A stretch of 42,415 nt of DNA from a virus, in IMG/VR virus record IMGVR_UViG_3300045988_044581, positions 1 to 42,415 of that record. One strand, 5' to 3'. Each line of letters begins with the position of its first letter. Position 1 is the stretch's first letter. This document shows, in pieces, positions 21,242 through 24,397 of the stretch. The position numbers and the translations under genes are program-made. The notes beneath the pieces are model-generated. The model was not told the DNA's origin. It made no database searches and saw only the letters and a program-made list of their open reading frames with translations.

Positions 21242-21309
21242 CCGGTATCTCGCGGGGCAGTGAGCGAGGGAAACCGCTGCACAACTGTATTGGTGGGGAT
21301 GCAGACAAG

Positions 21310-21335
21310 AGAGGCCTATAATGGGCCTCTTTTTT
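21310..21335 (+). terminator. Intrinsic terminator ending the late operon
   Basis: AGAGGCC-TATAATG-GGCCTCT hairpin followed by TTTTT. Confidence 0.75.
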
Positions 21336-21359
21336 GATGTAAATAATTGATATTAGTTA

Positions 21360-21388
21360 TTTACAAATAAATAAACGTATAGTATGAT
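21360..21388 (+). promoter_or_regulatory. Sigma-70-type promoter TTTACA-N17-TATGAT, with inverted repeat TTATTTACAAATAA over the -35
   Basis: Hexamers at 21360-21365 and 21383-21388 with an exact 17-nt spacer in an AT-rich context. Duplicated at 22324. Confidence 0.7.
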
Positions 21389-21434
21389 AAGAGCATCAAA
21401 AGAGATCGAAAAGATCACTTACAAGGAGGAAAAA

Positions 21435-21671
21435 ATGAAGGTAGCAAAAATCGGGAATCAGAATTTCGGATTAACGGGAAAGGTAAAAAACCTTTGCGAT
21501 ATTATGGAGGACGGACTCTTTGAAGTAGAAGGGTTCTTCCACCCTGTATCCGTTGAGCGCGTTACACAGTACGGAGAAGATGAGCTTTCCGGACAGGTCG
21601 GAGGGCTCTTCAATGGAGCGGACGGCGTTCGCCGTTATTATATGGAAACGGGGAAGTTTGAGGAGGTGTAA
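21435..21671 (+). CDS. Small acidic protein (78 aa), anti-CRISPR candidate by context
   Basis: RBS AAGGAGGA. Product MKVAKIGNQNFGLTGKVKNLCDIMEDGLFEVEGFF... First gene after the strong promoter. Start trimmed from the track. Confidence 0.6.
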   Translation: MKVAKIGNQNFGLTGKVKNLCDIMEDGLFEVEGFFHPVSVERVTQYGEDELSGQVGGLFNGADGVRRYYMETGKFEEV

Positions 21672-21672
21672 A

Positions 21673-22110
21673 ATGTATAAGGTAATTGACGGGAAGCGGT
21701 ACAATACGGACACGGCAGAGAGAATAGCCGTATACTCAGAGGGAGGCGGCCCGCGCGATTTCCGACACTGGTCGGAAGAGTTGTATAGAAAGAGAAACGG
21801 CGAATTCTTCATTTACGGGGAAGGAGGCCCGGCGAGCAAATACAGCGTTTCCTGCGGTCAGAATCAATGGAGCGGAGGAGAAAAAATCATTCCGATAGCG
21901 TACGAGCAGGCGCAAAAGTGGGCCGAGGATTATCTCTCCGGAGAAGAGTACGATGAGATCTTCGGAGAAATTGACGAGGACAACGAGCGACAGACGGTGA
22001 CATTTTCCCTTCCGTCAAGCGTCTGTGAAAAGCTCCTTCGGGAGGCGGCAAAGGCTGGCTTGTCGAAGTCAGAGCTTGTGTCAAAGCTCATCATGGGAAT
22101 TGACAACTGA
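21673..22110 (+). CDS. Protein with a C-terminal ribbon-helix-helix (CopG/Arc-like) domain, Aca-like candidate regulator
   Basis: RBS GAGGAGG. The C-terminus RQTVTFSLPSSVCEKLLREAAKAGLSKSELVSKLI fits a beta-alpha-alpha RHH. Start trimmed to ATG 21673. Confidence 0.6.
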   Translation: MYKVIDGKRYNTDTAERIAVYSEGGGPRDFRHWSEELYRKRNGEFFIYGEGGPASKYSVSCGQNQWSGGEKIIPIAYEQAQKWAEDYLSGEEYDEIFGEIDEDNERQTVTFSLPSSVCEKLLREAAKAGLSKSELVSKLIMGIDN

Positions 22111-22134
22111 TGAGTTTTGAAGCATTATATAGAC

Positions 22135-22262
22135 AACTTCCCCGCATCAGCGGGGGTGATCCTTATAGCCATAAGGGAAAACAAAATTTCCCTGCGTAAG
22201 CGGGGGTGATCCTTGTAGCCATGAAGGAAAACAAAACTTCCCTGCGTAAGCGGGGCATGAAA
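22135..22262 (+). CRISPR. Cas-less type I-E-like repeat triplet (28-nt repeats, 50-bp period, 22-nt near-identical pseudo-spacers); candidate RNA anti-CRISPR or mini-array
   Basis: Repeats are AACTTCCCCGCATCAGCGGGGGTGATCC (22135), AATTTCCCTGCGTAAGCGGGGGTGATCC (22185) and AACTTCCCTGCGTAAGCGGGGCATGAAA (22235). Each has a 6-bp GC hairpin. Confidence 0.7.
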
Positions 22263-22292
22263 GAGAGCCGGTTTTTCCGGTTCTCTTTTTTT
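22262..22292 (+). terminator. Intrinsic terminator
   Basis: AGAGAGCCGG-TTTTT-CCGGTTCTCT hairpin (one G:U pair) followed by TTTTTT. Confidence 0.8.
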
Positions 22293-22323
22293 ACATATTT
22301 TATTATTTATTTGATAATTGCTA

Positions 22324-22352
22324 TTTACAAATAAATAAATGTATAGTATGAT
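22324..22352 (+). promoter_or_regulatory. Second copy of the TTTACA-N17-TATGAT promoter
   Basis: Hexamers at 22324-22329 and 22347-22352. The surrounding ~90 bp are ~85% identical to 21345-21434. Confidence 0.7.
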
Positions 22353-22401
22353 AAGAACATCAAAAGAGAGCAGAAAGCTCACTTACAAGGAGGAAATCAA
22401 A

Positions 22402-23010
22402 ATGGAAGGAATCAGAGTTGAAAACGTAGGTGGCAAGGTTGAAATTTATACGCCTTATAACCGCGATTTCATCGACGCTTTGAAGGCGAAGGTCGGCGGC
22501 GAAAGATGGGACGCAGCTAAGAAGTGCTGGACAGCTCCAGAGGAAATGCTGGATGCAGTTCGCGCCATCCTAAAGGATGTATACGGCTATACAGACATCG
22601 AGGACGCCGGAAAGCTTTACACGGTGCGCCTGGAATCCCTTTACGCAAAGGCTGACCGTGCACCTGTATCAGCCTTCAACAAGGTCATTGCTAGAGCATG
22701 GGGACGCGATTCTGGGGCGGTTGTCGGCGATGACGTCATTTTTGTAGAAGGTTCTCCGAAGTCTGGCGGAAGCCGCAACAACTGGGAAACGATCATCCCA
22801 GAAGGATGTGTGATCGATGTACTCCACGTACCGGAGAAGGCACTGGAAAAATTTAAAGAAGAGCTTGCCGGAGAGACCTGCCCGGATTACAAGATTGTAT
22901 CCGAGACGGTAGAAGAAGAGAAGAAAGATGATCAGCGCGCGAAGCTCCTCGAAGAGCGTGAAAAACTCCTTGCAAGACTTGCAGAGATTAACAAGGAGTT
23001 GGGAGAATGA
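22402..23010 (+). CDS. Hypothetical protein upstream of the integrase, translationally coupled to it (possible recombination directionality factor or other accessory factor)
   Basis: RBS AAGGAGGA with ATG 22402, 202 aa. Stop overlaps the integrase ATG (ATGA). Confidence 0.6.
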   Translation: MEGIRVENVGGKVEIYTPYNRDFIDALKAKVGGERWDAAKKCWTAPEEMLDAVRAILKDVYGYTDIEDAGKLYTVRLESLYAKADRAPVSAFNKVIARAWGRDSGAVVGDDVIFVEGSPKSGGSRNNWETIIPEGCVIDVLHVPEKALEKFKEELAGETCPDYKIVSETVEEEKKDDQRAKLLEEREKLLARLAEINKELGE

Positions 23011-24326
23011 AGCGGGCAGCTTTATATGTCCGCGTAAGTACCGCTGAGCAGAGAGATCACGGGCTGTCAGTAGACAGCCAAATCTCTGCCCTGCAGAAAT
23101 ACTGCGAGGACAACGGATATAAGATAGCTGGCATCTATAATGACGCGGGAATCAGTGCCAGGAAGAGCTACAAGAACCGGCCGGCACTCCTGCAAATGCT
23201 GAAAGACTGCCAACAGAAACGCGTTGACATTTGTCTTTTCACGAAGCTAGACCGCTTCTTCCGGTCGGTCGCTGACTACTATGCTTGCGTGGAGCAGATG
23301 GCCGACGTTCCGTGGAGGGCAATCTGGGAGGACTACGAAACTGAAACTTCTGCAGGTGTTTTCAAAGTCAACATCATGCTTTCTGTTGCTCAGTCGGAAG
23401 CGGATCGGACTTCTGAGCGAATAAAATCCGTAATGGATTACAAGCGGGCACGCGGTGAGTACGTCGGTACGGTGCCGGTTGGATACAAAAGGCAAGGAAA
23501 GACCCTTGCGATTGACCCGGAGACAGAGGCAGGCGTTCGCGCTCTCTTAGAAGGATACCTGGATTATTTGCCGCTTGATGAGTGTGTGAAAAACGCAAAG
23601 GAAAAAGGCGTGACATTCCACCGGAGGACGGCGAATGACGTGCTGAAACGCCCCACCTACTACGGGGACGCATACGGCTGCAAAGTACCGGCGTACATCA
23701 CCAAAGAGCAGCACGATGCAATCATGCAGCGGATGAGCGAGAACATCCGCAAGCCAATCCGGACGGGCGTTACCTTTACGTTTCAGGGCATGTGCCGTTG
23801 CGGATACTGCGGGCGAAGAATGTCCAGCACATCCCGCCGCAGGCACTCAGGAAAGCGTGGTGACTACATACAGATTATCTATCAGTGTCCAAAGCACGTT
23901 AATGATTTCATACATCCCATCTGTAAAGGGTGCGGGATCAATGAGGAATTTTTGGAAGATGCGATTCTGAAAGAACTGGAATCTGCGGTATCTGAGTACA
24001 ATTACAGCTTGTCAAAATCCTCAATCACAACGGCCCTTGCCGACTATAATAGGGAAAAAAAGAAGATTGAAGACAAGAAGAAGCGCCTTGCTGAGCTTTA
24101 CGAAGATGACATGATTACCAAAGAAGAGTATCAGGAAAGACGGGATGCACTGCGCGACAAGGAAAGAGACCTGAAAGCTCCGGAAGCTGCAAGAAAGGTC
24201 ATCCTTCCTGCAGGGTGGAAGGAAACGTATTTTTTACTGGATAAAGAAAACCGCCGCCTCTTTTGGAGACGAACGGTCAAAGAAATTTTGGTCTATCAAG
24301 ATCACAAGGTTAAAATCGTTTTATAG
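23007..24326 (+). CDS. int: Large serine recombinase (integrase)
   Basis: N-terminal resolvase domain AALYVRVSTAEQRDHGLSVDSQ with the catalytic Ser. Cys-rich zinc ribbon CRCGYCG...CPKH. C-terminal coiled coil. Confidence 0.9.
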   Translation: MKRAALYVRVSTAEQRDHGLSVDSQISALQKYCEDNGYKIAGIYNDAGISARKSYKNRPALLQMLKDCQQKRVDICLFTKLDRFFRSVADYYACVEQMADVPWRAIWEDYETETSAGVFKVNIMLSVAQSEADRTSERIKSVMDYKRARGEYVGTVPVGYKRQGKTLAIDPETEAGVRALLEGYLDYLPLDECVKNAKEKGVTFHRRTANDVLKRPTYYGDAYGCKVPAYITKEQHDAIMQRMSENIRKPIRTGVTFTFQGMCRCGYCGRRMSSTSRRRHSGKRGDYIQIIYQCPKHVNDFIHPICKGCGINEEFLEDAILKELESAVSEYNYSLSKSSITTALADYNREKKKIEDKKKRLAELYEDDMITKEEYQERRDALRDKERDLKAPEAARKVILPAGWKETYFLLDKENRRLFWRRTVKEILVYQDHKVKIVL

Positions 24327-24397
24327 AGCGGCGCACGGGGGTTGAACCCGCATCCCGACCTTGGGAAGGTCATATTCTACCGCTGAACTAGCGCCGC
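24327..24397 (-). tRNA. tRNA-Gly (anticodon CCC)
   Basis: Manual fold: acceptor GCGGCGC/GCGCCGC, D-arm GTTC-AGCGGTA-GAAT, anticodon arm TGACC-TTCCCAA-GGTCG, 4-nt variable loop, T-arm GCGGG-TTCAACC-CCCGT. Confidence 0.85.

Follow-up and report, generated by a model that had tools for sequence, protein, structure and literature searches.

A Cas-less array of type I-E crRNA-like units in a temperate gut phage, a putative RNA anti-CRISPR

To our knowledge, RNA anti-CRISPRs have been recognised only in the years 2023-2026, and few of them have been tied to a host. The subject here is a short tandem array at positions 22135-22262 of IMG/VR virus record IMGVR_UViG_3300045988_044581, in which three type I-E-like CRISPR repeats alternate with 22-nt pseudo-spacers. 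The whole stretch analysed, 42,415 nucleotides long, is called the window, and other loci carry numbers with the prefix L. We propose, giving it about an even chance, that the element is a Cas-less phage array of type I-E CRISPR RNA (crRNA)-like RNA anti-CRISPRs, with pseudo-spacers that probably also act as guides.

RNA anti-CRISPRs (Racrs) are solitary repeat mimics that sequester Cas proteins, RacrIE1 and RacrIE2 having been validated (Camara-Wilpert et al. 2023, PMC10651486), and the search for them (SRUFinder) set aside, as arrays or mini-arrays, any repeats lying within 100 bp of each other (PMC10651486). RacrIF1, RacrIE1 and RacrIE2 share with the window element the mimicry of a repeat by a phage, often with small accessory genes adjacent, and the element likewise imitates a CRISPR repeat while sitting on a mobile element that has no cognate cas genes. 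It is not solitary, however: where a Racr has no other repeat within about 100 bp, here three repeats stand in 121 bp, and these tandem crRNA-like units would be expected to build whole shortened Cascades. RacrIF1 is said to have been found by Camara-Wilpert et al. in 2023 to form aberrant Cas6f and Cas7f subcomplexes.

Viral mini-arrays and solitary repeats, reportedly described by Faure et al. and by Medvedeva et al. in 2019, are said to carry one full-length (33-nt) spacer and to be thought to target related viruses. The mini-arrays share the repeat-spacer-repeat order without cas genes, whereas the window spacers are 22 nt long, are variants of each other and have no protospacer that we could find. 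Cellular CreR and CreA have the same design of repeat (psiR), pseudo-spacer (psiS) and repeat, psiR-psiS-psiR, and use Cascade as a repressor by limited pairing; they sit inside cellular CRISPR-Cas loci, whereas the window element is on a phage, far from cas genes.

Viral crRNA-like RNAs termed 'Cracr' were described by Liu et al., who list 20 multi-spacer I-E arrays (bioRxiv 10.1101/2024.10.29.618823). By their definition at least 9 nt of the pseudo-spacer, those proximal to the protospacer-adjacent motif (PAM), match a host CreR or CreA and a cas or creT promoter; arrayed Cracrs target variants of one system type, and viral pseudo-spacers are shorter than cellular ones, with two Cas7-family subunits fewer and escape from AcrIF24 (bioRxiv 10.1101/2024.10.29.618823). 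The I-E Cracr array of a Salmonella prophage has 24- and 21-nt pseudo-spacers, Cas-dependent processing and repression of casA (bioRxiv 10.1101/2024.10.29.618823).

The window element has the architecture of this class, namely psiR-psiS(-psiR) units with authentic handles and short pseudo-spacers, and it shares with the arrays of Liu et al. a cas-less phage, several units per transcription unit and pseudo-spacers that are related to each other. Its 22-nt pseudo-spacers are shorter than normal, as are those of 21 and 24 nt in the Salmonella array, and in both the last repeat deviates, by a 1-nt deletion with poor processing in Salmonella and by a hairpin without handle here. The two differ in repeat subclass, the handle being GTGATCC (Firmicutes/Actinobacteria type) in the window and ATAAACCG in Salmonella, and in host clade, which for the window element is gut Lachnospiraceae. 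They differ also in that the Salmonella pseudo-spacers match the host CreR and the casA promoter, with repression measured, whereas no such match was found for those of the window. By analogy, its nearest counterparts appear to be the 'I-E Cracr arrays' that Liu et al. describe, and the Racr/Cracr class offers its best reading. The first-pass annotation took a tandem I-E mimic to be uncharacterised, but the kind had already been described, in the arrays of Liu et al. and with the validation of RacrIE1 and RacrIE2 (PMC10651486).

Anatomy and repeat class of the array

The three I-E-style units at a 50-bp period are as the first-pass annotation described them. TRF reports a period-50 repeat of 2.4 copies (score 193) in 22135-22255, the period being exact over the three units. 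Three copies of the 18-nt core TTCCCYGCRTMAGCGGGG are present, where shuffles give an expectation of 0.10, and the window has no further copy with up to 3 mismatches permitted. The features of the array and its transcription unit are:

22100..22128, + strand: array promoter, sigma-70-like, with -35 TTGACA at 22100-22105, a 17-nt spacer and -10 CATTAT at 22123-22128 (promoter scan)
22135..22162, + strand: psiR1, AACTTCCCCGCATCAGCGGGGGTGATCC, a 21-nt hairpin part (future 3' handle) and the 7-nt 5' handle GTGATCC
22163..22184, + strand: psiS1, 22-nt pseudo-spacer TTATAGCCATAAGGGAAAACAA, GC 0.32
22185..22212, + strand: psiR2, AATTTCCCTGCGTAAGCGGGGGTGATCC, handle intact
22213..22234, + strand: psiS2, 22-nt pseudo-spacer TTGTAGCCATGAAGGAAAACAA, GC 0.36
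22235..22255, + strand: psiR3, terminal repeat, hairpin part only, AACTTCCCTGCGTAAGCGGGG
22156..22205, + strand: predicted crRNA-like RNA 1, 50 nt, GUGAUCC, psiS1 and 21-nt hairpin handle (processing predicted)
22206..22255, + strand: predicted crRNA-like RNA 2, 50 nt, GUGAUCC, psiS2 and 21-nt hairpin handle (processing predicted)
22259..22292, + strand: intrinsic terminator, 13-bp stem, 5-nt loop and U-run, -20.1 kcal/mol, z = -7.06

On folding, every repeat forms a 6-7-bp GC stem with a tetraloop, and the C>T substitution in psiR2 still pairs (G.U). The pseudo-spacers psiS1 and psiS2 are identical at 19/22 positions, the differences being at positions 3, 11 and 13, and psiR3 has CATGAAA in place of the handle GTGATCC. 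The ends of both predicted RNAs were placed from the S. thermophilus I-E crRNA layout (PMC6859484) and the folds. A functional array would have unique spacers of 32-33 nt, a period of ~61 and cas genes in the same genome. Here the period is 50, the 22-nt segments are nearly alike and the closed genome has no cas gene, in agreement with the earlier view that this is not a working CRISPR array.

The absence of cas genes was likewise borne out. The first 119 nt of the window equal its last 119 nt, which gives a closed genome of 42,296 bp (the 42.3 kb of the first-pass annotation). A tblastn search of the window with eight I-E Cas proteins returned nothing below E = 0.2. PADLOC and Pfam found no Cas or defence family in 11 of the larger open reading frames (ORFs), which matched phage structural or replication families or nothing, and no cas gene occurs among the called genes and precomputed Pfam matches of near-identical contigs.

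The -35 hexamer of the array promoter overlaps the last codons of an upstream 145-aa ORF, and its -10 hexamer ends 6 nt before psiR1, with the predicted start at about the first base of psiR1. The terminator was seen by folding; a simple consensus scan missed it. As read from the sequence, the array is a self-contained unit of promoter, repeats and terminator. It had been expected to be co-transcribed from a promoter at 21360, upstream of the 145-aa ORF. There is no terminator between that upstream operon and the array, so read-through from 21360 may occur, but with its own promoter at 22100-22128 the array does not depend on it. An imperfect inverted repeat, AAAGCTCATCA ... TGATGAGTTTT, surrounds the -35 of the array promoter (window 22074-22129); it gave a sub-threshold match to an Rfam miRNA family (E = 0.025), is weaker in relatives and is probably not significant.

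Class membership was judged by comparison with real arrays and an actual cas operon rather than with a consensus. IMG/VR was scanned with the repeat pattern TTCCCYGC-N4-GCGGGGGTGATCC, a 25-nt core in which the loop alone is free, and the 35 matching loci are true arrays of period 61, viral mini-arrays, solitary repeats and two copies of the window element. The repeats psiR1 and psiR2 differ from those of true period-61 arrays solely in the first 3-4 nt and the loop. The stem and handle of psiR1 are identical to those of period-61 arrays, including the array of L018 (repeat GTTTTCCCCGCATGCGCGGGGGTGATCC), which adjoins Cas3, Cse1, Cse2, Cas7e, Cas5e, Cas6e, Cas1e and Cas2e-DnaQ (NCBIfam). By exact-sequence look-up of its proteins, the L018 organism is Stomatobaculum longum, of the Lachnospiraceae. 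The window repeats therefore belong to the type I-E class with the GTGATCC handle, on comparison both with period-61 arrays and with the complete S. longum operon. This confirms the earlier description of them as near-consensus type I-E repeats.

Rfam, CRISPR-DR models included, gave no family for the element even at E = 10, a tRNA being the sole gathering-level match in the window, and a literature search with the S. thermophilus repeat string found no paper. A match in a phage collection, MT835722, was rejected as a relative of the element, being an ordinary period-61 array. The same repeat class also occurs in viral mini-arrays made of a repeat, a 33-nt spacer, a handle-less repeat and a terminator (L012, L013, L020, L023). 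Solitary repeats of the GTGATCC class stand on further viral contigs with no second hairpin near (L008, L015, L027, L028; L010, L021; L001; L026), and these are candidates for classical Racrs against type I-E.

Conservation and spacing in viral relatives

The phage recurs as ~42-kb circles in many human-gut metagenomes (dozens). Among 12 close copies, which have two different leader sequences, the array is identical to that of the window in 10; in L007 and L017 one base is changed beside psiR3. The close copy L036 has one unit fewer. Relatives with 1 to 4 pseudo-spacers were compared (L036, L059, L061, L066, L073 and L179-181): L036, L059 and L073 have a single pseudo-spacer, the window, L179 and L181 have two each, and L061 and L180 have four. 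In L066/L067, where the 145-aa homolog is 66% identical, the same position holds four repeats with three quite different pseudo-spacers.

Neither the stems CCCYGC/GCGGGG nor the handle GTGATCC changes in any of these variants, and the loops are variable. The pseudo-spacers of the two lineages are 44% identical, yet their length is constant at 21-23 nt. In all relatives the terminal repeat, after which no spacer follows, has no handle. The third unit of the window, described earlier as degenerate like a terminal repeat, does depart from the others, but the loss is systematic and concerns the handle alone, the hairpin being kept. Since the handle is kept wherever a pseudo-spacer follows, the product would be complete crRNA-like RNAs rather than bare hairpins, and the pattern is what one would expect if a Cas5e-type 5' handle and a Cas6e hairpin must flank each pseudo-spacer. 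L059, L061, L073 and the divergent L066 share the promoter geometry, followed by 6 nt and psiR1; the promoter of L066 reads TTGACA-17-TATGAT. The sequence between the hexamers differs, and the terminator is conserved in all relatives. A hairpin formed by the CC of the handle and the pseudo-spacer (CC-UUAU/AUAA-GG) was considered as a defining feature and rejected, being significant in window-type variants only (p about 0.03-0.06) and absent in L066b and L066c.

IMG/VR was also surveyed for I-E-type hairpin pairs 46-54 bp apart, an I-E-like handle being demanded on all non-terminal units. The survey gave 54 viral loci (L083-L178, L022), mostly in high-GC phages, the window element being among the few low-GC members. 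A period of 49 was found 39 times and one of 50 was found 23 times, all other permitted values together accounting for 12, and 62/74 pseudo-spacers are 21-22 nt long, with 1 to 5 per array. The terminal repeat has no handle in 38/54 arrays. Pseudo-spacers are more alike within one array (identity 0.51) than between arrays (0.28). They are also AT-rich relative to their own genomes, with a GC difference of -0.11, the figure for ordinary spacers being -0.05 (per-locus p = 7e-4); the window pseudo-spacers, at 0.32 and 0.36, compare with 0.49 for the genome. In four loci (L022, L113, L144, L154) 21-nt and full-length (about 33-nt) units are mixed in one array.

The period of 49-50 equals 61 minus 11-12, which is two Cas7 steps, and this shortening is a rule of the class. 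In the crRNA of S. thermophilus Cascade a 33-nt spacer stands between a 5' handle of 7 nt and a 3' handle of 21 nt; when the spacer is shortened by 12 nt (-12 StCascade), the complex still assembles cleanly, is stable and forms R-loops, having lost two Cas7 and one Cse2, whereas the -6 and -18 versions assemble poorly (PMC6859484). No shortened StCascade locks the R-loop, which is the step that licenses Cas3 (PMC6859484). The engineered -12 crRNAs (Songailiene et al. 2019, PMC6859484) thus have the layout and the ~12-nt shortening of the window element, whose spacers of 22 nt (-11) compare with 21 nt in those constructs. They and the shortened crRNAs of Kuznedelov et al. 2016 (PMC5159557) are laboratory constructs, whereas the window element is natural. 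The 49-50 spacing may be a general signature of anti-CRISPR arrays.

Upstream genes, integration site and host

Upstream of the array lie the following features, which form its context:

21360..22110, + strand: upstream operon of P1, 78-aa ORF and 145-aa ORF
21360-21388, + strand: promoter P1, TTTACA-17-TATGAT
21435-21671, + strand: 78-aa ORF, narrow family
21673-22110, + strand: 145-aa ORF, beta-rich N-domain and weak CopG/ribbon-helix-helix (RHH) C-terminus

The 78-aa protein belongs to no known family; its distribution covers 5 clusters, and some relatives lack it. For the 145-aa protein the family is widespread, with at least 226 clusters of gut-phage proteins of ~140 aa, usually encoded in the accessory region between lysis and integrase genes (homologs P0001-P0120). 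Its N-domain is modelled as beta-rich, with eight strands (AlphaFold2 (AF2) model, pLDDT 86); the model had no fold match in the PDB and no known anti-CRISPR protein (Acr) fold, and in BFVD it matched uncharacterised phage proteins only. The two genes had been called a protein acr-like operon. That is plausible but unproven, the 145-aa protein having a weak CopG/RHH match, an N-domain without match and a family that is widespread in array-less phages. An obligate linkage of the array to the 145-aa RHH gene was rejected, homologs at or below 58% identity being without array.

Several further observations concern this region. Two paralogous cassettes of terminator, promoter and 5' untranslated region (window 21300-21440 and 22275-22407) are 83% identical, one driving the 78-aa/145-aa operon and the other a 202-aa ORF and the integrase. 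Each contains the promoter TTTACA-17-TATGAT, with the inverted repeat TATTTA-CAAA-TAAATA, which resembles an operator, across its -35, and the 5' untranslated region of each has a small hairpin with a compensatory change (GATC-GAAAA-GATC vs GAGC-AGAAA-GCTC). The otherwise near-identical phages L038, L039 and L040 carry an IS110-family transposase gene (DEDD_Tnp_IS110), inserted directly ahead of the lysozyme gene and some 2.3-3.5 kb upstream of the 145-aa gene. The distant phages L068 and L069, which have a member of the 145-aa family, carry parts of a diversity-generating retroelement (RVT_1 reverse transcriptase and bAvd).

The host was approached through an integrated copy of the phage. L180, a contig of 131 kb, was reached through a cluster member of the 78-aa ORF; in it phage sequence runs through the integrase and a tRNA-Gly gene and then exits, in the middle of an inverted repeat, into cellular DNA. 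In the window this is a perfect 30-bp inverted repeat with an 8-nt centre (24438-24467/24476-24505), downstream of a serine integrase gene, and the position of the phage-cell junction in its centre identifies it as attP. The bacterial side of the junction begins with a T-arm-like sequence, GGTTCGATTCC, where ARAGORN called no tRNA. The tRNA-Gly(CCC) gene (window 24326-24397, - strand) is complete (Rfam, 56.9 bits) and shares 1 nt with the integrase stop codon. Free and integrated phage alike carry it, and it is therefore cargo of the phage rather than its attachment site.

The cellular flank of L180 has a GC content of 0.54 and encodes an ABC transporter, phosphoketolase, NrdR and shikimate enzymes, with proteins identical or nearly identical to those of metagenome-assembled genomes of uncultured Lachnospiraceae. 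Judged by these sequences, the host of the phage is an uncultured gut Lachnospiraceae, of the family of S. longum, in which the repeat class was tied to an I-E operon. The other routes to a host gave nothing: contigs reached through an identical 145-aa protein or integrase were of 42 kb or less only, and 93 and then 331 spacers of I-E arrays had only chance matches of 14-17 nt to the window, the two best extending to 20/33 and 22/33.

Proposed function and alternatives

On the basis of these observations we hypothesise that the array is transcribed from its own promoter, possibly with read-through as well, up to the terminator. Host Cas6e would cut each hairpin at its base to give two 50-nt RNAs (GUGAUCC, 22-nt pseudo-spacer, 21-nt hairpin handle), and the authentic handles would recruit a full but shortened Cascade, which with a spacer 11-12 nt short would have two fewer Cas7 and one fewer Cse2. 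These complexes would divert Cas proteins from immune crRNAs and would bind DNA without locking an R-loop and without Cas3. The pseudo-spacers most likely also serve as guides in the 'Cracr' mode, by which harmless complexes would be parked at a promoter of the host, the promoter of the I-E cas operon being the most plausible candidate; related variants of the pseudo-spacer could then cover promoter variants of different host strains. The strict handle, the related variants in each array and an AT-richness that would fit promoter-derived sequence favour a guide role. In this respect the earlier suggestion of an RNA anti-CRISPR or Cascade decoy is the best-supported reading, but the units appear to be complete crRNA-like ones and not a Racr of the solitary-repeat kind.

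A number of points weigh against this proposal. Transcription and processing of the array are predictions from its letters, and the behaviour of -12 Cascade, Cracr and Racr is carried over from the literature. The pseudo-spacers have no match elsewhere in the window, nor a target in the promoters of the fetched loci, three I-E operons included (position-weighted search, flipped positions ignored). A CreR-like counterpart was sought as hairpin, N7 and seed in 185,579 GTDB representative genomes, with 7 chance hits only, and as seed, N14-31 and hairpin in a metagenome collection, with only chance spacers and two relatives of the element; both scans used exact patterns that tolerate no seed mismatch. 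No CreR-like element stands upstream of cas3 in the S. longum I-E locus, and the I-E loci L071 and L072 have no solitary psi-repeats. The AT-richness and the similarity within arrays could equally stem from tandem duplication and drift. The host DNA covered is 7 kb of flank, and the proposal presumes a type I-E system in this host. In E. coli, Cascade can still interfere in vivo when its spacers are >20 nt (PMC5159557), so that the statement that shortened complexes cannot cut holds for S. thermophilus and may be system-dependent.

Protospacers were looked for as well, the first-pass annotation having held that one with an I-E PAM would favour targeting. Scans of IMG/VR with three pseudo-spacers gave chance-level matches only (about 1.7 and about 0.7 expected), with the wrong GC and no A-rich PAM, and there was no self-match; thus no PAM-flanked protospacer in a competing element was found. 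Nor did any of 424 spacers taken from real arrays match the window. A resemblance of the pseudo-spacers to the -10 regions of the phage's own P1 and P2 was rejected, as it needs gaps that Cascade pairing does not tolerate. In a separate observation, the pseudo-spacer of the fourth unit of L061/L180, TACTGCTATAGTGGATTAATT, matches L020 4503(-) and L034 6482(-), two related low-GC phage contigs, at 16/18 non-flipped positions with AA upstream. Positions 6, 12 and 18 are all among the mismatches, chance alone would give about 0.25 such matches, and the handle of that unit is degenerate.

The alternative nearest to the proposal is pure sequestration, a Racr-like sink in which Cas6e and shortened Cascade would still take up these RNAs but the pseudo-spacer would be a mere ruler of irrelevant sequence, its length yielding stable dead-end complexes, and Cas proteins would be titrated away from real crRNAs. 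Racrs, two against I-E among them, act in this way (PMC10651486), and multiplexing raises the sequestering effect according to Liu et al. (bioRxiv 10.1101/2024.10.29.618823). The failure of every search for a target or CreR counterpart, the fast divergence of pseudo-spacer sequence (44% between lineages) at a fixed length, and a unit number of 1 to 4, as expected if dosage counts, all fit it. We nevertheless regard it as rather unlikely: an autoregulated I-E system buffers sequestration when it acts alone (Liu et al., bioRxiv 10.1101/2024.10.29.618823), every pseudo-spacer is preceded by a strictly kept 5' handle, unlike in solitary-repeat Racrs with aberrant complexes, and the pseudo-spacers are related within arrays and AT-rich compared with the genome. 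Unlikely, and more so, are two variants of the proposal. In one, the pseudo-spacers would guide shortened Cascade, safe from Cas3, to something other than a cas or creT promoter, perhaps another host defence or a phage lysogeny gene, and host Cascade would serve the phage as a programmable repressor. In the other, the -11/-12 length would itself be the weapon, creating stable dead-end Cascades that are spared by an Acr (perhaps the 78-aa or 145-aa protein) that blocks full-length complexes, which would mirror the logic of AcrIF24 in type I-F.

It is improbable that the element is a working mini-CRISPR array whose 22-nt spacers are used with host Cas proteins against competing phages, plasmids or the host. 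One pseudo-spacer is a variant of another rather than an independent acquisition, shortened StCascade does not lock R-loops, and no convincing protospacer exists, the IMG/VR matches being at chance level and neither the 424 real-array spacers nor the pseudo-spacers matching the window. The units are complete, with handle, spacer and hairpin, the E. coli interference with spacers >20 nt (PMC5159557) would permit such use, and viral mini-arrays with 33-nt spacers do occur in the same repeat class (L012, L013, L020, L023). The AA-flanked match of the L061/L180 pseudo-spacer to an unrelated phage (L020, L034) would also fit, at the chance expectation and with the degenerate handle given above. A decaying remnant of a host CRISPR or CreR, or a fortuitous neutral tandem duplication, is if anything a shade less probable. 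Pseudo-spacers that resemble duplicates, a 'degenerate' third unit, a unit number that varies among close relatives and the lack of the array beside more distant relatives of the flanking gene could all suggest decay. Yet stems, handle, spacer length, promoter and terminator are kept despite a neighbouring protein at 66% and pseudo-spacers at 44% identity, the array is invariant in 10/12 close copies despite two leader sequences, the same architecture with a 49-50 period is found in 54 unrelated viral loci, and the 'degeneracy' of the last repeat is systematic, with the handle alone lost. Explanations outside CRISPR, namely a repetitive extragenic palindromic (REP)-like element, tandem terminators, or iterons for the upstream RHH protein, are largely refuted. 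GC hairpins are generic, no Rfam family was found at E = 10 and a gene for an RHH-type DNA-binding protein lies immediately upstream; but the 35 loci that the 25-nt core picks out are all I-E arrays, viral mini-arrays or solitary repeats, the 7-nt handle matches the repeats beside a real I-E operon, the array hairpins have no U-runs and the RHH gene family is mostly without array.

The window element extends the I-E crRNA-like class to a prevalent temperate phage of human-gut Lachnospiraceae. Its relatives form a natural allelic series, with 1 to 4 units and a spacer sequence that turns over, which is suited to separating decoy from guide function. The survey adds the rule that in phage I-E mimic arrays the spacer is nearly always 11-12 nt shorter than normal. 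If this rule holds, spacer length alone could flag anti-CRISPR arrays in viromes, and possible uses would include CRISPR-resistant therapeutic phages and compact Cascade-based repressors.

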